Numbered from the stretch's first letter, positions 39,512 to 64,000 are shown. The stretch: DNA of 64,000 nucleotides from Macrostomum lignano (GCA_002269645.1 NIVC01002574.1:96805-160804); one strand, 5' to 3'. Notes: generated from the letters alone by a model not told the origin. Numbers and translations are program-made.

Positions 39512-45943
<6,432 letters not shown>

Positions 45944-46699: not shown

Positions 46700-47008
46700 A
46701 GTAGTATAGAAATAGACGCTTCTAGACCCAGAGCACTTTTTTAATGACCGTTTTAAGGGTCTAGAGGGGGGACACGGGGGGTAAATAAAAAAACACATCT
46801 AAACACCATTAATACATCTAATCACCCATAATCACCCCTAACAATAAAAATCACTTCCCAACACTTCCAAAACACTCCCCAACACTCCCCTCGCGTCCCC
46901 CCTCTTAAGACCTTACAAACGGTCATTAAAATAAGGTCTGATCTAGAAGCGTCTTTTTCTATACTACTACTCTATAACCCCTTGCCCGCGCCGCAGGCGC
47001 GAAGGGTC
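46700..47008 (+). repeat. Left terminal inverted repeat (about 309 bp) with an internal foldback
   Basis: 46981-47008 is the exact reverse complement of 63973-64000; starts AGTAGT. Full TIR length is inferred. Confidence 0.8.
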
Positions 47009-47025
47009 TTTTTCTGTTACTAAAA

Positions 47026-47340
47026 ATGACCCGAGTTTACACCTTTTCTGTTAGTGATACTTTTGAGACTGTTGCTAAAAATGCAGAGATAATAAAACAA
47101 CATATTTTGAATGGAATAATTGATGAAGTTTATTTAAAATATGACGACAAGCACGACCTAAAACTTTATCCATTAGAGCTAGATGAGATGTATGATTTAG
47201 AACAAGAGGGTGAGTTAATATTTCAACTTGGAGATTATTTAAATTCGGATGATTGGGAGGTTAGATCAACAGATTCCGAATCAACAAATAGTTCATATGA
47301 AACCAGTGATTCAGAGAATGAAAGTGAAATTTTTATGTGA
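47026..47340 (+). CDS. Polinton hypothetical protein, 104 aa, acidic C-terminus
   Basis: Open ORF with TAAAA-ATG start; family not recognised. Confidence 0.6.
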   Translation: MTRVYTFSVSDTFETVAKNAEIIKQHILNGIIDEVYLKYDDKHDLKLYPLELDEMYDLEQEGELIFQLGDYLNSDDWEVRSTDSESTNSSYETSDSENESEIFM

Positions 47341-47356
47341 AAAAAATATTTAAAAA

Positions 47357-47611
47357 ATGAACTATTATTCTATAACAGAAACGACATTTATTGTGAAAAA
47401 TATATATAAAAAAATGAAGGTAAATCGAACCCATGGTTCGCGTGCTTTGCACGATTACTCCTACATCGGAAATGTGCCGATTAATGAACTTAATGAAAAT
47501 TTAAGTTTGATAACAGTTGAACAAATGTCAATAATAATATTAGTAACAATTATAGTAATAATATTGTTTTTGTTTGTTATAAAAAATTTACTACCATGTT
47601 GTCTCAAGTAA
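47357..47611 (+). CDS. Small membrane protein, 84 aa, C-terminal hydrophobic helix followed by PCC
   Basis: IIILVTIIVIILFLFVI; carries an in-frame 30-bp hairpin insertion. Confidence 0.55.
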   Translation: MNYYSITETTFIVKNIYKKMKVNRTHGSRALHDYSYIGNVPINELNENLSLITVEQMSIIILVTIIVIILFLFVIKNLLPCCLK

Positions 47612-47621
47612 TTGTTCGAAC

Positions 47622-49229
47622 TTAGTTCGCTGATATTAGTTGGTTCTCATAAAACGAACCCAATATTTCTTCACCGTCCTTATCAGCAATTATATAGGTT
47701 GTAGGATTGGTATTTAAAACTTTACTGATAGTAAATTTCTCACTTATCTTCCAATATCCTTTTCTTCCTTTTTCAAACTTATCTTTCCATTTATAGATAT
47801 AAACAGAATCACCAACCTTAAAAGATTTCTTTTTATTTTTTTCAAATTTTCCAAAAGTAACTTTAACGTTTTCAGGATTGTTATAAGCTTGTTGAGGAGT
47901 CATCTTTATCGCCGAATGATATGAATTGTTATAATCTTTCACTACGTCTGGTAATATTTTTACCCATTTTTGGTTACCATTAAGACTAAACTGAAACCAT
48001 AATTTCTTACCTAAAGTTCTATTAAATCTTTCTATTAATGCGTTTTTACTCTCTCCATAAATAGAATAAATTTTATTAATATACTCCCCATTCGCGTCTT
48101 TTTTCCTTTCTTCTCCTTTTTCAAAATGATATAATTTATACATATGAGGATTGTAAAATTCTTTTCCTTCGTCAACACACAACCTTTCACTTTTTTCTCC
48201 AAGACTTCTAAAAGCAGCAGCAACCTCCTCTCCCTTTTTGGATTTTAAAGGAACAGCCCACGCGTATCGAGTAAAACCATCTAATATGGTTAAGATATAT
48301 TTATATCCTCTTTCGTTCGGCATCGACATTAAATCAGCATACCAAATTTCATTCTTTTTGAAGTTCATGATTTTTCTATAAAATTTCGGTTTTCGATATT
48401 CTTTATGAAGAATCTTTGCCTCATCAGAACTTAACCCACCACCACTTAACAACAAACACTCAACACAATTATTTCCATGTTGATTATAATTAATTCCCAA
48501 ACCAAATTTAACTTTAGACTGCAAGATCTTTTTAACCATCCACCTAGTTAATCTTTGCCCTACCGATAATCCCTGCAAGTTATCTAATCCTTGAATCATT
48601 TTTTGATCGGCTTCGTGTTTTAATCTTAGCGCTTCCTCGGGCGGGTTCTTATCAGCATCTCTGTATGCTAAGTCATGATAGTATGCCAACCAATCAATTC
48701 CATTTATGGGAATTGAATCGGCTTTTGGAGTGTCATCAGGATTTAATCTCAAATCTAAGCGAGTGCCGGGTAGTTTACCCCCAATCTTTCGAAAGAGGCT
48801 GGAGCACACCTTAAGCGGCGATAATTACCGCCCATCTCCGTCTGCTCTCTGAACCTTCTCCTTATATTTAAAATACTTAGGAGCTTGGCTGCGCATTGCC
48901 ACCGTGTCTTCAAGCTTTTTACCATCGAACCATAGGTTCGCGTGCAAAGCACGATTGGGAAGAGGAGTTACCTCTGTTCCTTCAAAAGATTTCTCAATTG
49001 AAGTGGTACTTGAAGCTGTATGACGGGTTTCACGCAATTTGGAGATGTCGCCACAAATAGTGACTAGCAAGGACATTGCCTTCCTCACTCAGGCCACGGG
49101 TTAACCTGTGAAGTTCATTGATGGTAGGTGTAGTTCCCCTGTATATTTACCAGTAGTAAAGATTGGTGGTAAGCTTGTTAATCCTTTTTGAACATCTAAA
49201 AATCCTCCTTCAAATACTATTTGGTTCAT
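47622..49229 (-). CDS. PLA2 (parvovirus VP1u-like)-integrase fusion, 424 aa after splicing; exon 1 49229-49104, exon 2 48770-47622
   Basis: TAAAA-ATG at 49229. Spliced junction GELHLPSMNFTG|PGTRLD, catalytic YYHDLAY and EADQ; rve triad WYADL / CVDEG / IERFNRTL; Polinton-type C-terminus FKVGDSVYI..FYENQL. Confidence 0.9.
48771..49103 (-). ncRNA. Group I self-splicing intron, IC1-like, 333 nt, no internal nuclease
   Basis: P1 U.G wobble (exon CAGGU with IGS GCCUG); P3 CAUCUCC/GGAGAUG; P AAAUUGCGUGAAA; Q AAUGCGCAGCCAAG; R GUUCAGAGAGCAGACGG; S AAGGUGUGCUCC; P7 G(A)GAGCA/UGCUCC; P8 and P9 hairpins. Removal restores the ORF and the GPG motif. Last base is A, not G. Confidence 0.88.
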
Positions 49230-49713
49230 TTTTAATGTTTAAAAAACATGTTTCTATCAATTTAATAATTTCTAAATATTGGCCACCATATAAAAAATTT
49301 AAAGCAAATTCCCCAGTTAACAAGGTAACTCCATTATCAAATACTTTTTGTACGGGGTTTTTAGTAGTATTATTAATGCAAATATAATATAAATCAAATT
49401 CGGGATTAACATATTTAAATTCTAATAACTTTTGAATATTTCTAAATCGACTTGATGAATTATCTGTGTTATCAGAAGATTTTAACTCTAACGCAACTTT
49501 TCTTTCTGTATGAATTAAATCAATTTTATTTACTTTTTCAAAACCAAAATGTTTAATAGCTAATAATTCATAAAGAGATCCAAGTCTCATTTGTATTGTT
49601 TTAATATGGTTTGAAATTATTAATTCATCTTGAAATATTTTATTTAGTATTCTGTCAGAACCAACTTTATCACAAATAGGCTTACAAAGGTGGTCTTTTA
49701 TTGTTTCATCCAT
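49210..49713 (-). CDS. PD-(D/E)xK nuclease, Eco47II/Sau96I restriction endonuclease-like, 167 aa
   Basis: KTIQMRLGSLYE, IDL..KVALELK, NTDNSSS resemble the Eco47II family pattern (from memory; needs an HMM search). Confidence 0.7.
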   Translation of the reverse strand: MDETIKDHLCKPICDKVGSDRILNKIFQDELIISNHIKTIQMRLGSLYELLAIKHFGFEKVNKIDLIHTERKVALELKSSDNTDNSSSRFRNIQKLLEFKYVNPEFDLYYICINNTTKNPVQKVFDNGVTLLTGEFALNFLYGGQYLEIIKLIETCFLNIKNEPNSI

Positions 49714-49740
49714 TTTATAAAAAATAAATTTAACAATTAA

Positions 49741-50424
49741 TTAAACACCAGTATGTCCAGCAGCTTTCGCAGCAGCTAAAACAAGTTTTCTAGGAGTTTT
49801 AAATCCATCACCAACAGCTGGTTTGTTATTTATAGAATTAACAATCCATTTATACAAGCTGGTATTTTTAACAGCTCCTCCTAAATCATCATAAAAAATT
49901 CTAGCACTTACTAAATCATTCTTAGTATAAAAATCAGGGTTAAACTTAACCCTAGGGTTAGTAATAATTCTATATGCTCCGCCCAATTCTCTATATAGTT
50001 CATTTCGATCTTTATCAACGTTACCAATTCGGTAATTATTATTACCTAAATCTGTCACAGCAATACTAGCTGGTACTCTTGGAAATTGTTTAACTTCTTC
50101 ACCCCTTTCTGCAGCCCTAATCTCTGCACGTCTAATCTCTGCAACTCTCAATTGAGCTTGATCAACATCATAAGCAGGCGGCTCATCCAAAATTTCATCC
50201 TCTTTTGGCTCAGTATTTGTAGCAATTTTTTCCAGAAGATCTTTATCTGTTTTTTCTAGTTCACTAATTTTCCCAGTAATAGGATTAACAAAAGGAGCAG
50301 CAAATCTTTCGCCAGCTAATTGTATTCCTAACTTTCTTTTTTGTAAATTTCTAACAAAATCAGAATATCTTTGCTTCTCTTTATAAATCGCTAACTCTCC
50401 ATCAACGTCCATAAATTGACTCAT
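49741..50424 (-). CDS. Polinton hypothetical protein, 227 aa
   Basis: Intact ORF, TAAAAA-ATG start, divergent from the capsid gene. Confidence 0.65.
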   Translation of the reverse strand: MSQFMDVDGELAIYKEKQRYSDFVRNLQKRKLGIQLAGERFAAPFVNPITGKISELEKTDKDLLEKIATNTEPKEDEILDEPPAYDVDQAQLRVAEIRRAEIRAAERGEEVKQFPRVPASIAVTDLGNNNYRIGNVDKDRNELYRELGGAYRIITNPRVKFNPDFYTKNDLVSARIFYDDLGGAVKNTSLYKWIVNSINNKPAVGDGFKTPRKLVLAAAKAAGHTGV

Positions 50425-50458
50425 TTTTTAACATAAAAAACTTTTTTAACTTAAAAAA

Positions 50459-51931
50459 ATGGCTGAAACAAAAACTATGTGGAGTGATAAATTTCATTTC
50501 AAAAAGCACCGACAGTATATTAATGAGGTCAGAGCAAGAGATTTAAATTATACCCTACCAACAAGTGATAATTCAAATAACTTTACTACTGGAACGGTAA
50601 CTTTTGACATCGGCGCAACCAACACTATATTGGATATGAAAAATGCGTTTTTCCGCGTTAGATGGTTGTATACTAGAAATGATGGAACTGCTCTTGCAGC
50701 CGGAGATATCGCAGATCGATCCGGAATAATAATAGAAAATGATTGGTTTTATAAATGTTTTTCCCAAGCTCAACTAACTGTTAATGGTGCTGAGGTTGAG
50801 ACATCATCAAACCCCGCAGAGATTAATGGAGTTTTGAAACATTTAAATTATACTTATTTATCAAAACAAGTTGGTGATAATGTTGGGTGGATGCCGGATA
50901 AAGGTAACGGTCAAGCAGTAGTTTTCCCTAATGTACAAAACGCAGCCGGTGCAGATACTGCAGCGCTAATTGTTTACCTTAATACAAACATAGTTCCAGT
51001 TGTAACCACTATGACTAATACAAAAGATATTAATACTGGTTTTATAGATCGTCAGAATAAATTCCCAGTCGCGGTTTTAACCACAGCAACAGCATATGAG
51101 CAGGACTTTTCAATCTTTCCACTATTTGGGTTTTTCTCACCAAATCGGGTATGGAAAGGATTAAAATTTGGGATACAGTTGCAAATATCTGGTGGATATC
51201 AGCCTAGGATACTTTATGGAACCTCAATTTCAACCGATATAGCAGTTCGTATAGATTCAATTCAATTAGTCGTACCAACTATTGAGGTAACAGCCCCACT
51301 TTTAAAACACATCGATAATCAGTTAACGCATGATCAGGAAATATTTTATTTGAATCGTCGACATTTTATGCGAACCATTAATAATAACCAGGATTCATTC
51401 CAGTGGCAAATACTGACATCAAAACGTCGGGTGAGATATATTTTTGTTTGGTTTAAGATAACAAATAGAAGGAGTAAAAGAGCAAATGGGGATTTATATT
51501 GGCTTCAATCCGGTGCCATAGCAGAACAAGCAGCCACCGCAACAGACAATGCGGCTGCAGCTATTAACGAGTTTAATGTTCAGAATATCCGCCTGCAGGT
51601 TGATGATCAATATTATCCGGTTAAAGACCCCCTAAATTTAAATATAGCAAATAATAATGTTAATGATTTTATAAAATATTATCAAGATTATGCCAAAAAT
51701 GAAGCGTATGCCGTCCCTCAGTACACACCCACAGAGTTTCTAAACATTCATCCAGTGGTTGTTTATGATCTAACGGCACAGAAAGAAAACGTAGCCAATA
51801 TTGGACTTAATTATATGTTAGAGATTAATAAAACTGGTAATCAGGCAATAGACGCACACGTATTGTTTCTAGAGGAATATATGTCAATTGCTAAAGCTGA
51901 TGGCACGATTGTTCGGGACGCGCCACTTTAG
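50459..51931 (+). CDS. Major capsid protein (double jelly-roll, Polinton PY-like), 490 aa
   Basis: Size, beta-rich pattern (TVTFDI..LDMKNAFFRV, FSQAQLTVNGAEVE, HPVVVYDLT, AHVLFLEE) and position before ATPase, penton and protease. Confidence 0.8.
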   Translation: MAETKTMWSDKFHFKKHRQYINEVRARDLNYTLPTSDNSNNFTTGTVTFDIGATNTILDMKNAFFRVRWLYTRNDGTALAAGDIADRSGIIIENDWFYKCFSQAQLTVNGAEVETSSNPAEINGVLKHLNYTYLSKQVGDNVGWMPDKGNGQAVVFPNVQNAAGADTAALIVYLNTNIVPVVTTMTNTKDINTGFIDRQNKFPVAVLTTATAYEQDFSIFPLFGFFSPNRVWKGLKFGIQLQISGGYQPRILYGTSISTDIAVRIDSIQLVVPTIEVTAPLLKHIDNQLTHDQEIFYLNRRHFMRTINNNQDSFQWQILTSKRRVRYIFVWFKITNRRSKRANGDLYWLQSGAIAEQAATATDNAAAAINEFNVQNIRLQVDDQYYPVKDPLNLNIANNNVNDFIKYYQDYAKNEAYAVPQYTPTEFLNIHPVVVYDLTAQKENVANIGLNYMLEINKTGNQAIDAHVLFLEEYMSIAKADGTIVRDAPL

Positions 51932-52015
51932 TGTCGCAGTGCAAAGCACGTCGCGCCATTGTAAAATGAGTGCAGGTCTCCGACCGTCGCGCCTATTTAA
52001 ATTATTTCTTTAAAA

Positions 52016-52809
52016 ATGGTAAAGGCAAAACACAATAAAATATTTCCAAATGATCCTTTTCTTTGTTTAGTAATCGGAGGATCAGGTAAAGGAAAAACAC
52101 ACTTTGTTACGATTTATTAACAACAGATGGAATGTTAGACTATAATAATTTAATAATTTATACTAATAAACCTAGAATAAAATATTATGAATTTCTTAAA
52201 CATGGATTAAAAAACAAATTAAAAAAAGATGTCTTGTTTAGAATGTTAAGAGCATATGAGCAATATGAGGATGATGACGAACCGCGATTTAATCTAGCAG
52301 ACATTGAGGATTTATGTAAAACAATGGCACAACAGCCAGAAAACATCACCGATCGCCCCGAAGGGTCGCGGACTTCGTCCGATCGAGCCCCAACAATTAC
52401 AATATCAAACCGATTAACTTATGACAAAATTCCAAAAAATGATAAAACACTAATTATATTTGATGATTGTATTAATGACGGAGATCAAGAATTGCAAAAG
52501 GAAATTTTTGTTAGTGGTAGAGGAGATGGAATTGGAGCTTTTTATCTTACTCAATCCTTTAGAGAATTAGAATCGATTATAAAAAAGAATGCTAGCTGTT
52601 GTGTAATGTTTGATTTAGATAACTATGATCTACAAAATATTCACGCGAGATTTAATCCTGGGTTGGATACAAAACCATTTAAAAGTATGTGTAAAAAAAT
52701 TTGGGATGATAGCCAATACAAACATATTTATATCAATCCGAGGTTAGAAAGGAAACATAGAATTTTAACAAATTTGATAAAAGAAGATAATGAGGAAGAA
52801 GAGACATAG
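52016..52809 (+). CDS. A32/FtsK-like packaging ATPase, 1-bp frameshift near 52108
   Basis: Walker A GGSGKGKT from ATG 52016, Walker B LIIFDD, FYLTQS and IIKKNA motifs. Confidence 0.85.
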
Positions 52810-52829
52810 CACAATTTCCCACTATAAAA

Positions 52830-53628
52830 ATGACTACAAATTTAGATACTATAAAACAATTGGTAGATCGAACTAATTCAAAATTTAGTACAACCTTACA
52901 GTTTATAATGACAACCAGTGAACAACGTATTCAATTGCGCGACCCGTTACAACTTGATCAAAGCCTAAGTTATCAAATAGGTTTGATACTATTTTCGGTT
53001 TTTAACATGCCTCAATTAATTAATGCAACAAATAATCAATTTAGATATTCTAAAGATTCCGGAGCCAATTGGACAACATTTAGCGTTAACCCAGGAGCGT
53101 ATAGCTATACTGATTTGAATGCTTATATAGAATGCTTATATAGAAGGAGAATTAACATCTAACGGCGATTGGGTATCAGGCGCAATTGTTATAGGTGTTG
53201 ATTTACCATCTGGCAGATTCACACTATCACTAGGATCCGGATATCAGGTTGATTTCACAATTGCAAATTCACTCAGAACCATACTTGGATTTAATTCTCG
53301 AATAGTTACCACATCAAGCACCGGCGATACAGTTGGAAATATTGAGGGTGGTGTTAATACAATTAATATAACAACCGACATATCAAACGGCGGTTATATA
53401 ACAGATAATAATGGAGTTTTGGTTCAACGTGGAATTATTTATTCCATCCCATTTCTTGCTGTTCCAATTGGAGAGAAAATGATTGTATCACCTCAAACCC
53501 CAATATATTACCCATTAAATCAATATAATGTTCAATCAATTTATATTAGGATTGTAGATGAAACCGATAGATTAATAAGTTTTGGTGGGCAATCAATAAC
53601 AGTAATTTTACGTATAAAACAGGTTTAG
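52830..53628 (+). pseudogene. Minor capsid protein (penton) disrupted by a 13-bp tandem duplication GAATGCTTATATA near 53117-53142
   Basis: Removing one copy joins the two ORFs; C-terminus IIYSIP..PIGEKMIVSP..IYYPL..IYIRIVDETDRLISFGG is penton-like. Confidence 0.8.
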
Positions 53629-53672
53629 CCGAACCAAAGGTTCGAGGACATCGTCCGTTTCCCATAGTAAAA

Positions 53673-53882
53673 ATGGGTAATCGAACAACATGTTCGCGTG
53701 CAAAGCACGATAATAATAATAATTTACTAAAAAAACAATCAGAAAAAGTTAAAAAAGCTGAAGATAATTACGAACTAGAACTAGCAAAATTAAGGCAGTT
53801 ACAAGCTGATAAAATAAGAAAGGAATTGTTAAAACCCACACCTACGAAACTAACTAAAACCAAGAGTTTTTCAGGAACATAA
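53673..53882 (+). CDS. Small basic protein, 69 aa, possible N-myristoylation (MG)
   Basis: TAAAA-ATG start; in-frame hairpin insertion. Confidence 0.45.
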   Translation: MGNRTTCSRAKHDNNNNLLKKQSEKVKKAEDNYELELAKLRQLQADKIRKELLKPTPTKLTKTKSFSGT

Positions 53883-53883
53883 A

Positions 53884-54327
53884 ATGACCATGACGTGGGA
53901 TGATTTTAAACAAAGATATGGAACAGACACAACAAGCAATATCGAATTAACAAATTGGGCGCGGCAGTTAAAAATAAAACCATTCAGATGTGTGATGCGG
54001 GATGAGATAAAAGACTTACCACAATATGGATCTTACATTGTCAACATCGAAACTACAAAAGAAAACGGGGCTCATTGGTCGGCAGTTTATTCCAAACCTA
54101 AACTTGTTTATTTTTTTGATTCATACGCGCTTCCTCCGTTACAGGAAATAAAAGATAAATTTAATCATACTAAAAATCGTTTATGTGGAGATCATCACGA
54201 ACAGTTTCAAACCTTTGATAAAAGTTATTGCGGACAAGCAGCGTTATATTTTTTATATCGACTTTCGAATGAAGCTCGTGTAAACCACAAAGTATTTAAG
54301 ACTATCATGCAAAGCATGCGAACCTAA
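53884..54327 (+). CDS. Adenain-like cysteine maturation protease, 147 aa
   Basis: GAHW (His), FFDSY (Asp), QFQ (Gln), YCG (Cys). Confidence 0.9.
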   Translation: MTMTWDDFKQRYGTDTTSNIELTNWARQLKIKPFRCVMRDEIKDLPQYGSYIVNIETTKENGAHWSAVYSKPKLVYFFDSYALPPLQEIKDKFNHTKNRLCGDHHEQFQTFDKSYCGQAALYFLYRLSNEARVNHKVFKTIMQSMRT

Positions 54328-54364
54328 GGTTCGATTTTAGACTCTATAAAATAGACAGTAAAAA

Positions 54365-56236
54365 ATGATATTTTCTGGAACACCCTCATGGAACGGAACA
54401 ACAAGTACTGGTGGTGGTACGTCTGGTGGAATAAGTGTTACCTTCGGAGATAATCGATATATTAATGAAGATGAAGGTTATAAAAAAAGTGAAGTTGATA
54501 CTAAACTAAATTTGAAACGGAATGTTGCAGATTCCTATACCAAAACTGAAATCGATACTTCATTAAATCTTAAAAGAGATATTAGCGATTCATATACAAA
54601 ATCAGAGGTTGACACTGGGTTAAATTTAAAAAGAGATATAACTGATTCTTATTCTCGAACTGATTCTGATTCGCGTTATGTTCAAGCCACCGCAACCGGA
54701 ACTTTAGATATGGATAACAATCGAATTATAAATGTTGCAATTACAACGAATAACTCGGTAGTTGATAAGAACTATGTCGATAATCAGGTTGGTAGTCGTA
54801 ACGGCAATATCAATATGAATAATTTTAAATTAACAAATTTATTATTTGGAACAGAGGCCACAGACTCGGTCAATTTAGGGCAGGTCAACGCTCGAGCTAA
54901 TGTAACCGACGCCGATATTTTTGCCACGCCGCTTACATCAAATACTTCAAATCCAGATGTTGTTCTTACAGCATCCGAAAATACCAACGATGCTTTTCGA
55001 GTTGGAGATGGAAGCCTTGCGACACAATGGTCACCAAATACCGGAACCACAACCAATATGGAAATTCAATTTGAATTTTTAGGTTATAATCGAAGAATAA
55101 ATGAATTAAGAATCACAGGCAGCGCAACTATTGATATTCCATCGGGATGGTCGGTTCGTGCAAAAAATGTTGCTACCGATGCATGGACGGTATTACGAAC
55201 GTCGGGATCACCAATTCAAGCAACTTCATTTGCGTTAACTAATTTAACGGTTAATTTTTGGAAATATTATAGCGTTTTATTCCCAACTGGTGGCACCGCT
55301 ACACAACCTATCGAGGTTCGTCTAATACAATTATTTGAACACCGAGTTGAAATTCAAGATCTTAATTGGCCAAATGAAATACTATCTGCTACCCCGCGAG
55401 CGTACGTAGATCAGGTAGCAACTCCAACTTCAAATGGTAGAATGTCTGCCGGTGATAAAAATAAATTGGATAATATTCCCGCGATTGATGCCGCATTATT
55501 CGAGCCAGTAATTTGTAATTGGACTGGATATCAAAATCCAACAACCGCTGGAGATATATATCCAGTTGGTTCTTTAATTGGCGACGCTTCTTATATCGAT
55601 TATCAAAATGGAGCTAGAATTACTCGTGAAACTGGTGGAGTAAGTGGGGCATTACAATTCAATTTCACACATTTTCAAAATATATCTGCGTCTTTCTATT
55701 TCCGAGTCGCTAATTCTACAGGAGATGGTGCAGATGCGGTTTGGTTTTATGCATATTGTCACGAACGCCCAACAAGTGAAGGTGGGACTGGATTAACAAC
55801 CGACGCCGGATTGATAGTTTTTGCAAGTGAGTGGCATGATAAATTTGGCGTTGTATGGAGTAATAAAAAATCAGACGGATCAAGCCGCGCGGATGTTAAT
55901 ACTGACGCAGATCAAACGGTAGATTATGCAAATATTGATAACGGCGATTGGCATTTATTTGAAATTAATATTTTAAATCAAAGGGTTTGGTATCAATTAA
56001 ATTCATACAATGTTTCGGCCGATTCTTATACCCTCATTGGGCAGAACGTTTTCACATATGATAGTGGCACTTGGGGAACGTTGGATAAGACTGGAACCCT
56101 TATGGGTTTTGGTGCTCGAACTGGAGGATCGGATGCTGCACATTTTATTCGTGGCGCTGGCGTTTGTGGTAGCACATCGTTTGGTTATGTTTTTCCCTCT
56201 ACTGCTTATTTGGAAAAACCTCCTACTCAAATATAA
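54365..56236 (+). CDS. Fibre/receptor-binding-like protein, 623 aa
   Basis: SYTKxEVDT repeats, NMNNFKLTNL and MSAGDKNKLDNI fibre motifs, discoidin-like segment, C-terminal L-type lectin-like GDGADAVWF..GFGARTGG..H. Confidence 0.7.
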   Translation: MIFSGTPSWNGTTSTGGGTSGGISVTFGDNRYINEDEGYKKSEVDTKLNLKRNVADSYTKTEIDTSLNLKRDISDSYTKSEVDTGLNLKRDITDSYSRTDSDSRYVQATATGTLDMDNNRIINVAITTNNSVVDKNYVDNQVGSRNGNINMNNFKLTNLLFGTEATDSVNLGQVNARANVTDADIFATPLTSNTSNPDVVLTASENTNDAFRVGDGSLATQWSPNTGTTTNMEIQFEFLGYNRRINELRITGSATIDIPSGWSVRAKNVATDAWTVLRTSGSPIQATSFALTNLTVNFWKYYSVLFPTGGTATQPIEVRLIQLFEHRVEIQDLNWPNEILSATPRAYVDQVATPTSNGRMSAGDKNKLDNIPAIDAALFEPVICNWTGYQNPTTAGDIYPVGSLIGDASYIDYQNGARITRETGGVSGALQFNFTHFQNISASFYFRVANSTGDGADAVWFYAYCHERPTSEGGTGLTTDAGLIVFASEWHDKFGVVWSNKKSDGSSRADVNTDADQTVDYANIDNGDWHLFEINILNQRVWYQLNSYNVSADSYTLIGQNVFTYDSGTWGTLDKTGTLMGFGARTGGSDAAHFIRGAGVCGSTSFGYVFPSTAYLEKPPTQI

Positions 56237-56252
56237 AATATTTCTATATAAA

Positions 56253-56552
56253 ATGGCTTTTAGTAGAACTCCATCGATGCGGCAAAATAATGTTATTATT
56301 CCTATTCCTAAACAAGAATCAAATATAAAAACATTCAAATCTCATACCAAATTTTTATTTAGTACTGTAAATGTTCAGGATAATAAGAAGCTTCAAGAAT
56401 TAATTAAGTTATTAAAAAATCATATTATACTTCAAGAGTTTTGGAAAATTGGATTTAAATGGGAGAAAAAAGAAAGAATCACTCCAATACAATACCTATT
56501 AAGCTCCGGGCAAATACCAAAGAGCGTGGGGAATTCATTTTGGTGCTATTAA
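56253..56552 (+). CDS. Hypothetical protein, 99 aa (ATG at 56253)
   Basis: TATAAA-ATG start within the listed ORF. Confidence 0.5.
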   Translation: MAFSRTPSMRQNNVIIPIPKQESNIKTFKSHTKFLFSTVNVQDNKKLQELIKLLKNHIILQEFWKIGFKWEKKERITPIQYLLSSGQIPKSVGNSFWCY

Positions 56553-56564
56553 AAATAGACGAGA

Positions 56565-57204
56565 ATGTCGGTATCTGAAGCAGATAAATGGGAACGCGAC
56601 CGGTTCAACCAACGTAAAGGTCACATGTTAAGTAATGTTGATCGAATAAATTATGATTATGATTTATATAGTAAAAAAGTAAGAAGAGTTTCAAACCATA
56701 TAAGAAATATGGACTTTTTCAATATTGGATTTGGAAGCTTATCAATGTTATGTGTAATCGTTTTAGGTATTTTACAATCTATTCCAACTCTTAATTTATC
56801 TCAATTATTTTTAGGTATTTCAATTGGGTCAATATCAGGTTTTGAATTGATCAGGAACTTATCAATACTTTTAGCAATTAAATTATATCTTAAAAAAAGA
56901 AAGGAAAAATATAAATCATTAAGAGATGTTGCCAAGCAATATAAAAATCAATTATATTTATATGTGCAAAAAAATATTGGATGACGGAGAGATAACGATT
57001 CATGAATTATCAACCGCGGTTGAATTATATGAAAAATATTTAAAAGATAGAAATAGAATTTTAGATGTTGAAACTTTTACCGATATGGAATTAAAAGAAT
57101 TACGTTTGGACAAACCCAAAGCTCCACCTATAGAAACATTAGGTATTTACGAACCTGAAACTATTGCTACTGGGCACAAAGCCCGCGGTCAGGAAGTGCT
57201 GTAG
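56565..57204 (+). CDS. Two-TM Polinton accessory protein, frameshifted in an A-run near 56970
   Basis: Two hydrophobic helices, then KEKYKSL..LDDGEIT..YEKY pattern. Confidence 0.6.
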
Positions 57205-57238
57205 AACTTAATGTTGTTTAATTTATTTAATGCATATG

Positions 57239-57700
57239 TTATATATTCTTCCCAAAGTGGTAACTCTCTTCTGATCTAGGTTTAAATTTTTTATCAATAC
57301 ATAAAAATTCCAATGACTTTTTCAATAACATTTCGTTAGGTATGTTACCTATCCTTATAAACTTTGTATTCTCTCGAATAAGAAAATTGAAATAATATCC
57401 AACTAAAATTAAAATCCTTTCAGAGTCTTTCGAACTTAATCCCTTTCCTTTATTTAAATGGAAAAAGTTATTATATAAATAAACATTATTTCCGGGAATT
57501 AAAATTGGATCAGAAATGTCTCTTGTAAGATTTCTTAAAATTGTGTTTTTAAAATAGTAATATGAGTTTTCAATCTTTTTTGTTTTTTCAAATTGATATA
57601 TTTTAGAACATGAATAACACATATGATATATATCTCCGTTTGCTGTTTGCCCTCTGTGCATAGTCACATTACATTTATTACAAACATAAATGTCTTTCAT
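57239..57700 (-). CDS. Hypothetical protein, 153 aa, N-terminal CxxC..CxxC zinc ribbon
   Basis: CNKC and CYSC. Confidence 0.55.
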   Translation of the reverse strand: MKDIYVCNKCNVTMHRGQTANGDIYHMCYSCSKIYQFEKTKKIENSYYYFKNTILRNLTRDISDPILIPGNNVYLYNNFFHLNKGKGLSSKDSERILILVGYYFNFLIRENTKFIRIGNIPNEMLLKKSLEFLCIDKKFKPRSEESYHFGKNI

Positions 57701-57726
57701 TTTTTTGTTATTTTTTTAGATTAAAA

Positions 57727-58054
57727 ATGGAGAGCTGGTTCAAAACCGATTCTAATGTGATTAATTATCTCACACCCAATATGTTGGAGAATAAAGAATA
57801 TAATATTGTATGTTTGAGACAGGTTAAATTTATTGGACTTCAATCATATTTTTACAATTAGATGGGCAAAAAATTTTATGTCTAAGCGGAGATGATGTTA
57901 AAAATTTTCCTGTTTTAGTTATTAATAAACCTAAAGCGTTTGTTATGAAATACAGCAACGAGGGTGGATTGCAATTTAAACTAAAACAAACAAATAATAA
58001 AAAGAGTGATAGGACTGTAAAATTGGCGGCTGTTTGGGAGGATGACCGAATAAG
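57727..58054 (+). CDS. Probable small frameshifted ORF (MESWFKTDSN...)
   Basis: TAAAA-ATG start; continuous only with indels. Confidence 0.3.
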
Positions 58055-58073
58055 TTAAATTTTTTATAAGAAA

Positions 58074-58412
58074 ATGGATACGATAAAAATCCTTATCACT
58101 AAAGAGCGTGAACTTAATGATATTAATAAAAAAATAAATATAATTATATCTCAGAAATATCATGAGTATGGGGACGATATGTTTCCCATCCGATATGAGA
58201 TAGATAAAAGAAAACGTTTTTTAAGACAAGATATTGTTTATGCTGAAATAGTAATTGAAATTGAAATAGATAGATTGGTTAGAAAAATAAAAAAACTTAG
58301 GAAAAAAATAAAGGATTGTTTAAGTTACCCTGCCGACTGTGAGGATAATTGGTGCTCAATAATATATGAAATTGAAATGTTAATGATTTGCTCAAACAAT
58401 TACATGCTTTAG
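58074..58412 (+). CDS. Hypothetical protein, 112 aa
   Basis: Intact ORF. Confidence 0.5.
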   Translation: MDTIKILITKERELNDINKKINIIISQKYHEYGDDMFPIRYEIDKRKRFLRQDIVYAEIVIEIEIDRLVRKIKKLRKKIKDCLSYPADCEDNWCSIIYEIEMLMICSNNYML

Positions 58413-58538
58413 TTTTTTACAGACCGATAAGTAATTTTTCTGTTAATCTCTTCCAGTTATTCAAGACTTTTTCCTTATTTAATTTTTTAAGTTCTTTTGG
58501 AAATGTTGAATAATAATTATCTATATCTTTTTCATATT

Positions 58539-61500
58539 CTAGAAATGTATTATATTCACAATCACATTCGATTCACAATCACAATCGTAATAATAATTAT
58601 TTATTGCCGCTTTGTATTCATTATATTTGCTTATTATATCTTCTTTTTGTTTTTTATCTTTTATCATATTTTTTATCTCTTCTTTTAAACCATATGGATA
58701 TGTTTTAATTTTATCATCTAAATACTTTTATCATCAAATGGACTTAATGTTTTTTTATCTGTCTCGATGACAAACATCTGATGCTTATCTGAATTTAATC
58801 GATATTGTGGAGCATGATAATTTTCAATTGTATTAAGGTAATCTAAAAGTACGTTTTTATAATCATCAAATGTTATCTTTTTTACTGCTGCTCTTGATAC
58901 CCCTTTTATTTTTTTTACCTCTCCCTCCTGTCCTAAAACCTTAAATGCATAGCATTTTGATCTTATTGCTATAAACTCGGTTATGATTTTGCTATTTAAT
59001 TCATCTTTCATTTTAAGTACAACTTTTTTATTTTGATCTGATTTTAAAGGATGGTTATCCGGATAGTCGGAGGTATCCAATGTATCCTTAATTTTTTCCA
59101 TATCTTTATAGACATCGAACCTTTGGTTCGCGGACTCCGTCCGTCATCTGTTTCAACCTTAAATACCAAACTGTCGGTGTCTGCATATATTGGATAGTTA
59201 TCTGGCCATGTTTTATTTATAACATCATAATAATATTCATACATTACCAGCTTTGCATAATCTAAAACAACCATTCCAATAAATATTGGTTTAAGAAATT
59301 TTGTTGTTTTATTTCTCATATGAATACCCATAAAGTTATCATCAAATTTTATAAAGTCTTTAAAGTTAGGTTTTGAGAAATATTTCTTTGCTTTATCAAT
59401 ATCCTTTTCTAAATGGAATTGGGTTCTATCTCTAATATTTTCAACCGTTTTTCCATAAAAAGCATTATTCATTAATTTCCAATAATCTTTCTCAAAATTT
59501 GTTTTTGACATCTGTCTCTGATTTGAATTAAAGTCAATATATTTAGCTAACCAATCTTCCTCAATAAACGATATTGTTCGATGTACTTTAGACACTTTTA
59601 ATCCCTGCTTTTTCATAAAATTGTAGAAGCTTATAATGCACTACATAGTTTTTCTTATCATGTAAATTTAATATTAATTTTTTTGTTGCTAGATGTTTTG
59701 CATTATCTACTTTAAGATAATCTTTTTGTGTTTGTGATAAATCATCTTCATTAACTGAACAATGCTCTGGAGCTAAAGGATATTTATATGTTTTTGCTTT
59801 TGCTTCCCGAGTATATTGCAAATCCACTTCTACGATACAGCCCCTTCCTTCGGGAATATTTTTGTAATAATCGGGGTCATCTTCCCATTGGAAATCAGCT
59901 ATTGGTAATTTTTGTTTCATACAACCACCGTATAAATTGTTTGCATCTAGATATAATACATATGATGATTTTTCTTTTTTATTATAATTTGGTAGATATT
60001 TATTATTTACTTTAGTATATCTATCTCCTAGTACACCCGAGAATCCGCCGCGAATTCCTCTCTCAATCATTAACAACATATCATGATCAGTTAGTAAATC
60101 AATCTTAACATCTGTATGTTTCAAACCACAAGCCCATGTTAATCCGGTGCACTGAAACAATATGCGGGATCAATTTTAAAATTCTCATATGTATGATTCC
60201 TAAAGTTTTCAAATGCATCAGCTAATAGGAGAACATCTGCTTTAAGATATAGATTATGATAATCTTTAAATGTTTTACAATTAAAGTATTTCCATACTTT
60301 TTGAGCGTGTTCATAATCCGATTCACTTATGTTTGTTTGTGATAATGTTGAATAAAACTTTTCAATTGGGGGTAATTCGGTATGAAAAAATACGTCTTCA
60401 GATGTTACATATTCATATGGGTAGATGCCCTTACGAGTTAATAGCATTAGTTCTTCCTCGGATAGTTTTTCTTTTTGAAACGATTCAATAGATTGGAAAG
60501 TTTTTTTTACTATTTCTAAATCCCATGGTTTTGGAACTAATGATGAAACAACATTTGCTAAAGATGTTGATAAGAATCTCAAGGAATCTAGAAAAACTAG
60601 ATGGGAGTATTTCTTACCATATGTTATTGATATGTAATTTTCTGATGTTTTAGGTAATATATTTATTTCATATTCATCCTTTCCTAAATGAAGCAATTCT
60701 CGAACTAAGAAATGAAAATCATATCCGGAACCATTATGAAAAAATACTGGTATTTCCTTACATCCTTTTCCTTCTTTTGCATTACATGATCTACATGCTG
60801 CCCCTCGATAATTTCCTGTTAGATGACAATGTTCTCGTATCTTATTATTCTTACTTAAATGTCTTTTGCACATAAAACAATTTGTTGCATTTTTATAATT
60901 GTCTCTATCCTTATTTGTCATATTAATATTTTTTGATAATTTATCATATTGATTTTGAATATATTCAAATACATTTACTAATGATTCTGCCATGTGCTTA
61001 GCTGCATCATTACCGTGGTAAGTAATCATCCTTGATTTAAATATATGATCAGCTACGAGTGTACATATATACAATAACTATTCGGAAACTGTTGTGCCAA
61101 TTTTTTTGTGCATTCACCGTCATCAGATACCGTCTGTGATTCTTTTAAGGGAACATTTGTTGCTTCAAAATCAGCATATATTACTATTGGTTTTTTAACT
61201 GCCATATAATGTTGTTGGAACTTTAGGGTTGCATCTTCAGATGCTGGCATTATAGCATTAGTAAATTTGTGATCTAAACAAAATCGTTGATGATTTTTAA
61301 GAGCTGTTTCATCCTTTTTAAATGTAAACAATTTCTACATAGTGGATATCTATTTCTATTTTCTCTTAAAAAGAACTAATATCTTTTATGTATATATAAT
61401 GTGTTTCATTTTCGCGCTGCATGTACAAAAGATCGATTTGATCTGGTGCTGTTATATCAGTTGCTGGCTTAACAAGATAACAGTTTTCTTATACCATTCT

Positions 61501-62354
61501 GGATCGACTTGAATTTCTTCTAGATCTTTGGTTCTTCAATTGTAAACACATTAATATTTAAACCATTCATTTTTTCAATCTTATATATATCATCTATTGC
61601 TACTGGGTATGATATGTTTTTCATTATTATTTCATCCTCATATTGTCTATAATTATATATTTTATTAATGTGTGATTCTACTTGATTGTGATATTTATGA
61701 ATTAATAAACACCATAATAAACATTTATTATCTTTATTGTCTGGATTTATAATCATAGGTGATTTAAATTTGAGCTTCATATGTGATCGTCCTTTAAGAA
61801 TTTCTATGGTGCAATCTTTACTATTGCTGAATTACAGGATACAAATATAAACCCAGATCCGTTTTCTGTCATCTTATCTATCCATTCATCAAACTCAGCT
61901 TCTATTTGATCGAATTGATTGTTGTAATTTCCCATTGATAAATGTTTTATATGATTCTTGTGAAAAGTTATTTATTACTTCAATTTCTGAATTTGCATTA
62001 AGAATATTTGGTTTTTTAAATTCTGTTTCAACTTCTATTTTATACTTAATTGGCTGTCGTTTGTTATTTGGCCTTATAGTATAATTGTTTAATATGGTCT
62101 TTAATTTATCTTTCATTTGTTTAAAATATTCTTTATAATTTGTATTTATATCTATATCTATATATATTACTTCAGCTCCATTTTGTCCTTGTGGTTGGGG
62201 GTTATTAATATCATTTAATTGTCTTTCTAAACGTATCTCATTTTCTGCCCTAATTCTTGCTTCTATTTCAGCCCTATCTTCGTTGTGCATCGATTTGAGC
62301 TATTAATTGTGCTCTAAGTTCAGGGTTGTCGATTTGAGCTAAAATTGCTTCCAT
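58539..62354 (-). pseudogene. polB: Protein-primed family B DNA polymerase split by many small indels
   Basis: IYADFEA (ExoI), EHCHLTGNYRGAAC (endonuclease VII-like insert), FHNGSGYDFH (ExoII), YLKADV (ExoIII), YLDANNLYG, KLMNNAFYGK, YADTDS; ends approximate. Confidence 0.9.
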
Positions 62355-62399
62355 TTTATAGAATAAATTTATATAATGTATTTGAATTATTGATTTTTT

Positions 62400-63760
62400 A
62401 ATTTGCGTTTTTGGTGTCCAGACCCTCCCCCCAGGAGCCTATTCGAGATCTGCTTTTGGTAATAGCAATCCATTGCCCATAACGTTTGAATTTAAGAAAA
62501 TTCCTGAACCTGCTTTTGGTCTCATTTCGAGATATAATCCGCTTCCGTCGTGTTTTTCAATGATGTTAAAATCTTTTCCTAATTATAAAAATCTTTCTGA
62601 ACTGCTGGCTAAAATTGGATCCAATATTGTCAAAAAATCCTTTAGCTTTCTCACCCGTTTTTTCTAAAGTTTGACCAAATTCATGTAGTTTATCTGCGAC
62701 AACTCCACTTCCTTGGGTTGTTCCTTTTAGTACCAAACCATGCCATTTAAAGTAAACCTTTTCCTGCTAACCTAGCTTCTGCATTTCTTTTTTGCTCTGC
62801 TGTTGCTGAACTACTATTAATGGTGTATCATAAGTTTTCTGTTTGAATTGTGCGTCCTGCGTTATTTGCTGTCTTTGAAATTCGCCTCTCTTTAGCTTTT
62901 TCATCCGCAGCTTTTTCATTTACTGCTTTTGTGAATTCCAGCTGCGCCCCGCATCCACTCCAGCTGCTCCAATTCCTGCAAAAATTATTGGGAGCAAAGC
63001 TTGCAAGGCAAGATTCCCCTGTTTTGCTTAATCTCCTAGCTGTTTTCATTATCATGAATTCTTTTCCGGCTAAACCGACTGCTCCAGCTGCCCAGTCCTA
63101 AAAGAAGGTAGAATGGGTAAATCCGCCGTCCTTTTTAGTGTGAGTCTCCATAAAAATTTTACATCGGAGTCTGTCAACCTATAATTTCTGCCGCGATTCT
63201 TAAAGGATATTGGCCTTCCTTCTTGTGCATATTTTGCTGCGAGTTTAAATGTATCGATGTCGTAGTCAAACTTTTTACCTAATCGATCCAATCTTTTTAA
63301 CATTGTGTGGCTATGTTTATTATCATCTAGATCTAAAGTATCTACAATTTCTCCTATAAAATATAAGCGGTCGTTATCTGTGTCCATTTTTATATTGTTA
63401 AAATTTTTTAATCCTTTTCCGCCTTTAATTGTGTTAACATTTTATTAAAATCCTGAATATCTTTATTACTTATTGGCGTGCTTTTCGTGGGGGTTTCTGT
63501 TGGTTGTGCGGCTTGTGCCAGCTTTAAATCTTTTATTGCATTTATTTGTGAGAGGGTGTCGTTAAATCTCTCAATTTCTTTAGTTCTTCTGCCGCTCTAG
63601 CTGCTTCAATTCCTCCTTTTACAGCATTTGTTATAGAACCTGCTGCAGAGCCAGCTTGCCCTATAAGCCCATATTGTCTTTAACGAAAATTTGCTGCTGT
63701 TCCAACCACATCAAAAAGCCCCTCACCTCGGTATTCAACTGGTCTCCTACCTGCAATTCA
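62400..63760 (-). other. Cluster of frameshifted small Gly/Ala-rich Polinton ORFs (putative core or membrane-active proteins), including intact 63070-63387
   Basis: LLPIIFAGIGAAG..TKAVNEK, GEGLFDVV, GSGLYL, GSGIFL across frames. Confidence 0.45.
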
Positions 63761-63972
63761 TTCAGATTTTGCATATGTGTAACGTGTGTCATTTTTTGTT
63801 CTATTTTTAGTAACAGAAAAAGATTGTCTGCATTCCATTTAGACCAGATTTTAGACCAAATTTTGAAAACGAAAAACCAAAACGATAGTCTAGTTTTGTT
63901 TGGTCTAAAATCTGTCTAAATGGAATGTTGGGTGGGTAGGTTGAGCTGACTATAAATAGCTTCTATCTTTCC

Positions 63973-64000
63973 GACCCTTCGCGCCTGCGGCGCGGGCAAG
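63973..64000 (-). repeat. Inner start of right TIR (truncated by window end)
   Basis: GACCCTTCGCGCCTGCGGCGCGGGCAAG is the reverse complement of 46981-47008. Confidence 0.85.

Follow-up and report, generated by a model that had tools for sequence, protein, structure and literature searches.

How might an element that encodes a restriction-type nuclease, and no methyltransferase, be spared by its own enzyme? The question is raised by a stretch of 64,000 nucleotides from Macrostomum lignano (NIVC01002574.1:96805-160804; the window), in which positions 46700-64000 are a Polinton/Maverick element in the animal genome. The element runs past the window end, and its last few hundred bases lie beyond that end and outside every element count given here. 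A sequence-only reading of the window had claimed that the motif GGNCC is completely avoided over about 17.3 kb. An exact count returns 0 sites in 46700-64000 and 96 in the remaining 46.7 kb of host flank (one per ~490 bp), the final one before the element being at 45691. We consider it probable that a 5-bp restriction enzyme is at work here, whose carrier is immune through purging of sites and a ribozyme instead of methylation, and which spreads by homing or by cutting rivals.

Absence of GGNCC from the element

As that reading had anticipated, the motif lies far below Markov expectation: models of orders 0-3 predict 12.2, 19.3, 15.4 and 10.1 sites in 46700-64000, respectively. Dinucleotide shuffles in 500-nucleotide blocks (n=1000) contain 19.5 sites on average and never fewer than 6, zero being reached in 0/1000. 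Among the 136 one-gap 4-mer classes GGNCC ranks lowest in observed/expected ratio at orders 1 and 2, with the runner-up at 0.31-0.37. The deficit extends to the proteins. Gly-Pro dipeptides, also reported missing from the unspliced open reading frames (ORFs) of the element, occur 0 times in 4359 residues from 23 ORF pieces, where 7.0 are expected; Pro-Gly occurs 4 times. Shuffling the order of codons leaves 12.5 GGNCC sites expected and reaches zero in 0/1000, and a synonymous-only shuffle, in which the proteins are held fixed, leaves 4.9 expected and reaches zero in 7/1000. Thus, the deficit has two layers, because both Gly-Pro pairs and protein-fixed sites are short.

GGWCC (0 versus 10.5 expected) and GGSCC (0 versus 4.7-8.7 expected) are both absent, and RGGNCCY alone covers merely 3-4.7 of the expected sites. 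The depletion pattern therefore favours a 5-bp site, and the 7-bp RGGNCCY was rejected as the sole cause. As a separate feature of the same region, GCNGC is enriched (45 versus 18 expected) and CpG is not depleted.

The nuclease and the adjacent group I intron

By profile and modelled fold, the ORF at 49713-49210 belongs to the Eco47II-like PD-(D/E)xK family, whose target is GGNCC (Table 1). It has 167 relatives among cluster representatives, and 98 of the 104 aligned rows match PF09553 at E<=0.01 (best 7e-15). Comparison of the nuclease profile with an annotated Eco47II protein in hhalign gives 94.9% probability, the motif after the catalytic lysine included, and 20 of the 30 Atlas matches are in the Eco47II family. 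The catalytic residues D65, E76 and K78 are intact in the window protein and present in 103, 101 and 103 of the 104 rows, respectively. The structure model (predicted local distance difference test 95) folds as a single compact domain. Its best fold match is EcoO109I (Z 9.9, root-mean-square deviation 3.7, 164 residues aligned), the sole one with Z>=8 among 48,161 chains, and AvaII is a weaker match. Both EcoO109I and AvaII read sites with a GGNCC core. Searches with the nuclease sequence found no match in the PDB or in NCBIfam, and the viral fold library returned weak matches alone. Eco47II homologues have been assigned GGNCC, "without certainty" on the methylated base (PMC10305163). From the family assignment, the absence of sites and the position of the intron described below, we infer that the nuclease cuts GGNCC.

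A methyltransferase was found neither by tblastn of the window with two related methyltransferases as query (E<=1) nor among 26 window ORFs scanned against Pfam. With no methylase found in the window, the element is not a restriction-modification system. Distant relatives of the nuclease, in contrast, appear from their gene content to belong to such systems: P0024 and P0142 are nuclease-methyltransferase fusions, a methyltransferase adjoins the nuclease at locus L002, and L001 is a bacterial locus with a methyltransferase and an enzyme of 280 residues. The methyltransferases found with distant relatives are of the C5 type, and those of P0024, P0142 and L002 are 48-51% identical to one beside an annotated Eco47II gene. 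Derivation of the nuclease from GGNCC restriction-modification systems, with loss of the methyltransferase, forms part of the explanation that we hold, as a whole, to be probable. The GTDB scan yielded a single locus, L002. This distant relative is linked to a methylase and lacks an intron; it has 1 GGNCC versus 2.1 expected and is too short for this count to carry weight. L002 (1-3912) is a contig filed in a bacterial metagenome-assembled genome; it shows a convergent nuclease-methylase pair, low G+C content and a long perfect hairpin, and our impression is that it may be giant-virus DNA. Neither the nuclease nor the capsid protein has a match among phage records.

The minus strand next to the nuclease gene carries a match to the group I intron model RF00028 (60.8 bits, gathering threshold 50; E 1.6e-13), which a fast whole-window scan missed and a fuller search recovered. 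It is the single such match, and no second group I intron was found in the element. The intron interrupts a gene that encodes a PLA2-like domain fused to an integrase. Exon 1 is 72% identical to residues 1-32 of the uninterrupted relative P0158, and exon 2 aligns from its residue 33. Since P0158 fixes both ends, the intron is 49103-48771, 333 nucleotides. P1 with a U.G pair at the 5' splice site, P2, P2.1, P3, P7, P8, P9 and P9.0 can all be drawn, the paired segments having been picked by eye from a single sequence. P7 (48843-48849/48801-48806, minus strand) departs from the Rfam consensus by compensatory changes. Hairpin look-alikes of microRNAs in the element scored far below cut-off and were rejected.

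The position of the intron is what ties it to the nuclease. Exon 1 closes with GGT and exon 2 opens with CC, so that the junction GGT|CC is a split GGNCC; if the target of the nuclease is GGNCC, the intron disrupts it. The codons on either side are the Gly and Pro of a parvovirus-type PLA2-like motif. This Gly-Pro is present in 3/3 relatives that cover the junction (P0158, P0160 and P0161) and nowhere else in each of them; P0159 starts downstream. Every Gly-Pro codon pair spells GGNCC, and the junction is therefore the only site beyond the reach of synonymous change. The chance for a random U-ending junction in the element to form GGNCC is ~1e-3. In a side observation, the fusion of the PLA2-like domain to the integrase (47622-49229, minus strand) recurs in P0158, P0160 and P0161, and relatives of this gene carry PF08398 and PF00665; PLA2 has elsewhere been described as joined to a pX-like domain (PMC8502044).

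In this copy the nuclease gene adjoins the intron-bearing gene, its last codons overlapping the start of exon 1. It ends 162 nucleotides before P3, upstream of the splice site. Its ORF is not inside the intron, and hence the protein is not an intron-encoded endonuclease in this copy. Relatives suggest another layout. The translated intron core is matched by 6/157 nuclease relatives in BLAST, and by two more (P0003 and P0015) through motifs seen by eye. These eight read-through proteins enter the intron core 19-23 residues past the last nuclease motif, too soon for an exon and P1 to fit in between. Their ORFs therefore probably lie inside an intron, in a 5' loop, as judged from protein read-through alone. 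One relative, P0001, seems from its read-through tail to share the P7 variant of the window. In a tree built from the window protein, P0142, L001, L002 and whichever of the first 60 identifiers have at least 140 residues (59 rows in all), the window protein is sister to three read-through relatives (98/89), within a 12-row clade that holds seven of them. With 2 changes and a midpoint root, the direction in which the ORF moved, into the intron or out of it, is not decided by this tree. No longer proteins matching the translated intron core were found, a weak negative as the same search missed known read-through proteins.

Explanations for the missing sites

The self-avoidance that the sequence-only reading attributed to a nuclease of the element gains support from three observations: the missing motif is the target attributed to the nuclease family, no methyltransferase is present in the window, and the obligatory site is split by an intron. 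That the enzyme is active, has exactly this specificity and is "long-active" is what such a pattern would suggest. In the mechanism that we favour, a restriction-type endonuclease without a methyltransferase would cut GGNCC, and the element would have become immune by losing every GGNCC through synonymous and amino-acid changes. One site, the conserved Gly-Pro of the PLA2-like domain, would be impossible to lose. There GGNCC is interrupted at the DNA level by the group I intron, and removal of the intron from the transcript would bring the reading frame back; the intron would do the job of the methylase at the sole indispensable site. During co-infection, relatives that lack the intron would be the targets of the enzyme. 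A purged close relative would be cut once, at the intron site, and repair would copy in the intron together with the adjacent nuclease gene (collaborative homing), whereas an unpurged competitor would be cut many times and excluded. Specificity would then come from the genome and not from the enzyme, and a 5-bp cutter could thus behave as though it homed to a single site.

Several observations weigh against this explanation, and we take them together. GGNCC is not the only short motif in deficit: CCNGG, for which the exact count reproduced the seven positions listed by the sequence-only reading (48766, 51388, 52657, 53091, 56506, 57492 and 62431), occurs 7 times versus 19 expected, CANTG 29 versus 55 and CTNAG 20 versus 36 (0.4-0.55 of expectation). 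Against control motifs, GGNCC ranks last in ratio among the 136 one-gap classes, but its protein-fixed deficit (7/1000) is no stronger than that of CANTG (11/1000) or CTNAG (8/1000). Ranked by p-value at orders 0 and 2, a few non-palindromic motifs stand equal or higher. GG..CC pairs at spacings 0, 2, 3 and 4 number 8, 10, 11 and 6 versus 19 expected; since they are low at these other short spacings, a cautious local baseline is ~9 GGNCC sites, which gives P ~1e-4 for zero. The locus L001, which has a methyltransferase, contains 0 GGNCC versus 4.4 expected, so that absence of the site is not unique to methylase-free systems. The window nuclease alone scores 18.1 bits with PF09553 (E 0.0022; cut-off 25.9) and is 19% identical to characterised enzymes; at such a distance its specificity may have drifted. 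The value of ~1e-3 for the junction overstates the coincidence, because conserved codons are in any case preferred locations for group I introns and for homing sites. The final base of the intron (48771) is not the canonical 3'-terminal nucleotide, the boundary being set by P9.0 and the protein alignment, and this intron copy may therefore not splice. Frameshifts, through decay or assembly error, break up the genes for the polymerase, the ATPase and the probable minor capsid protein, and together with the intron's last base they mean that this copy may be dead or mis-assembled. Open frames are the nuclease, the integrase exon, the major capsid gene and one ORF of 623 residues. Finally, with GGNCC occurring every ~490 bp in the host flank, host DNA would be at risk from an active enzyme unless its expression is confined or growth is lytic.

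The strongest rival, though we think it unlikely, keeps the same specificity and self-avoidance. It sees the enzyme mainly as a weapon, aimed at the chromatin of the host in lytic growth or at a giant virus that infects the same cell, with the intron as armour and homing incidental. A 5-bp site is frequent in host DNA, distant relatives of the nuclease resemble viral restriction-modification genes, and antiviral roles have been proposed for nucleases of such elements (10.64898/2026.10.13.758929). What this rival does not predict is that the nuclease gene adjoins the intron-bearing gene and that eight relatives run into the intron core, a layout which is that of homing elements. Less likely again is that avoidance was imposed from outside, by giant-virus GGNCC systems or the homing enzymes of rival elements, with the intron as armour and the resident nuclease a recent passenger. 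GGNCC-type systems with methylases do occur among the relatives. Moreover, no enzyme matching the depletion of CCNGG, CANTG or CTNAG, or the enrichment of GCNGC, was found in the element, and the three low motifs may reflect outside pressures. However, GGNCC alone stands at zero, it is the motif associated with the family to which the resident enzyme belongs, and the catalytic residues of the resident nuclease are intact.

We regard it as highly improbable that the nuclease is a conventional long-site homing endonuclease and that the GGNCC deficit reflects compositional or codon-pair bias plus chance. The low GG..CC pairs at several short spacings and the synonymous-only test would fit such a bias, and a long-site PD-(D/E)xK homing enzyme exists (I-Ssp6803I, 17 bp; PMC3424549). 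Against it, zero sites remain improbable even on the cautious baseline, the 167-residue protein is modelled as a single compact domain, and the missing motif is at once the family's site and the intron junction. Site decay through methylcytosine deamination, dating from a past GGNCC methyltransferase such as relatives had, is disfavoured as scarcely credible, since it leaves the position of the intron unexplained and no excess of decay products is seen (GANCC/GGNTC 70 versus 70.7 expected; AGNCC/GGNCT 42 versus 44.0).

The favoured mechanism, a short-site enzyme with purging and an intron in place of a methylase, has relatives among known systems. The nuclease resembles the Eco47II/Sau96I type IIP enzymes (PF09553), and EcoO109I in fold, by its profile, the D..ExK residues, the NT(D/M)NSSS motif that follows them and the missing motif; it differs in lacking a methyltransferase, in length (167 versus 280 residues in the L001 enzyme), in residing in a eukaryotic virus-like element and in being tied to a group I intron. 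PacI-type solitary restriction enzymes reportedly have no methylase and a host without the site, together with an HNH fold, an 8-bp site, a bacterial chromosome and no intron. The element would share with this type the methylase-free enzyme and the site-free carrier, and would differ in fold, site length and intron. In phage collaborative homing a free-standing endonuclease is paired with a group I intron that lacks an ORF, and most characterised homing enzymes read >14 bp (PMC3984707). The element is similar in that a free-standing nuclease lies by an ORF-less intron that interrupts its predicted target at conserved codons, with relatives that apparently have the ORF inside the intron. It differs in that the predicted site is 5 bp, its uniqueness would come from a purged genome, and the host is a Polinton in an animal genome. 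I-Ssp6803I is likewise a restriction fold in homing, although one of PF11645 with its 17-bp site and a bacterial setting (PMC3424549). The gp210 protein of phage PhiPA3 is an intron-linked nuclease used against co-infecting viruses, but an HNH nickase of a bacteriophage with one specific target (PMC11620839).

Protist Polinton-like viruses carry RF00028 introns of 309-376 bp; these are reported in protist hosts alone, in another gene and with no annotated nuclease, and "Eco47II" has 0 occurrences in two of its supplementary files (PMC12220804). General mention has been made of nucleases, and of restriction systems as a possibility, among viruses of this group (10.64898/2026.10.13.758929; PMC11296320), and mirusvirus spliceosomal introns carry PD-(D/E)xK enzymes (PMC12768974). 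Animal group I introns were found for a 2025 database in placozoans, corals and sponges alone, mostly mitochondrial (PMC11835236); the intron described here lies in a provirus that has spliceosomal animal genes around it. In the full-text literature and supplements searched (including PMC10120064), outside which most subscription journals and bioRxiv supplements fall, no description turned up of an Eco47II-like nuclease in a Polinton or accompanied by an intron.

We regard the observation as real and well explained, as a modification of kinds already known that stands a fair chance of being a system of its own. Tentatively, we propose a "restriction-intron" system, in which eukaryotic Polinton-type viruses would have domesticated a 5-bp type II restriction enzyme and would owe their immunity to genome-wide purging plus a ribozyme in place of methylation. 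The enzyme would home to a single site among purged kin and shred the genomes of others; its family would be caught in both places, outside the intron and within it, and an animal nuclear genome would have received the intron. If true, a family of homing-type nucleases would have come from ordinary short-site restriction enzymes, and an intron could stand in for a methylase in self-protection. Since purging is selected only where DNA meets the enzyme, the locus would also be sequence evidence of animal Polintons competing in co-infected cells. With relatives that have the ORF outside or inside the intron, one could test in a eukaryotic virus how collaborative homing may lead to mobile introns.

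The element and its host flank

Table 1. Features of the element, with positions counted from the first base of the window.
Feature	Position	Strand	Basis
Polinton/Maverick-type element, GGNCC-free	46700..64000		AGTAGT start and G+C drop; rve, protein-primed DNA polymerase B (pPolB) and weak A32 matches; terminal inverted repeat arms
Left terminal region, internally palindromic, at end of host tandem repeat	46700..47027	+	inverted repeats I1, I4, I7, I23
Exon 2, 382 residues, first codon Pro; parvovirus-type PLA2-like domain fused to rve integrase	47622..48770	-	P0158 from residue 33; rve E 1.2e-7
Group I intron, 333 nucleotides, ORF-less, IC1-like (subgroup by eye)	48771..49103	-	RF00028
Exon 1 of PLA2-like/integrase gene, 42 codons, last codon Gly GGT	49104..49229	-	P0158 alignment, frame
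Eco47II/Sau96I-like PD-(D/E)xK endonuclease, 167 residues, open, free-standing	49210..49713	-	PF09553, fold
Probable double jelly-roll major capsid protein	50459..51931	+	Atlas look-alikes
A32-like packaging ATPase, frame broken near 52090-52130	52016..52809	+	Pox_A32 E 0.005 (weak); P-loop read from sequence
Probable minor capsid protein, two overlapping frames	52830..53628	+	position; no family match
Probable adenain-like protease	53884..54327	+	motif resemblance by eye; 0 Pfam families
pPolB region, several frameshifted pieces	58718..62290	-	DNA_pol_B_2
Start of right terminal inverted repeat, cut by window end	63803..64000	-	I4, I23

The AT-rich insert opens with AGTAGT where a host tandem repeat ends. 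Its terminal inverted repeats have perfect arms of 28 and 21 nucleotides, partial since the window ends. The left terminus (46700-46968) is a nested palindrome, with arms 46700-46726/46942-46968 and 46739-46781/46889-46931, that resembles two facing termini. A hairpin-bearing insert of ~150 nucleotides (63824-63972), possibly a host miniature inverted-repeat transposable element, breaks the right terminal repeat and is missing from the left one. The integrase match to PF00665 (rve) scores 32.4 bits (cut-off 32.6), and the polymerase match to PF03175 scores 27.1 bits (cut-off 25.8). The polymerase piece 60142-61074 (minus strand; DNA_pol_B_2 E 2.4e-6) also carries an Endonuclease VII-like domain (Endonuclease_7 E 1.3e-7), a second possible nuclease; an HNH domain has been described in nematode and oomycete pPolB2 (10.1101/2023.08.22.554363). 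The capsid ORF has no useful Pfam match; its Atlas look-alikes (0.97-0.98) are in Preplasmiviricota/double jelly-roll clusters, with a recognition value below threshold, and serve as a lead.

Double-hairpin repeats of ~30 nucleotides are dispersed at 47424, 48924, 52352, 53628, 53680, 54304-54337 and 59114, and look like a small mobile palindrome. One lies inside the intron, exactly at a 10-residue gap of the relatives P0001/P0002; another falls within the frame of the ATPase, and a third close to where a polymerase frame is broken.

Exons in the flank encode MAP1B-like, PB1-ZZ-UBA (p62-like), bHLH and kinase proteins, which by themselves make an animal host most likely. The host region 1-46699 as a whole combines G+C-rich exons (MAP1B-like, p62-like, STE20-like kinase and, by eye, MondoA/ChREBP-like) with reverse-transcriptase remnants, and its introns are full of tandem repeats.

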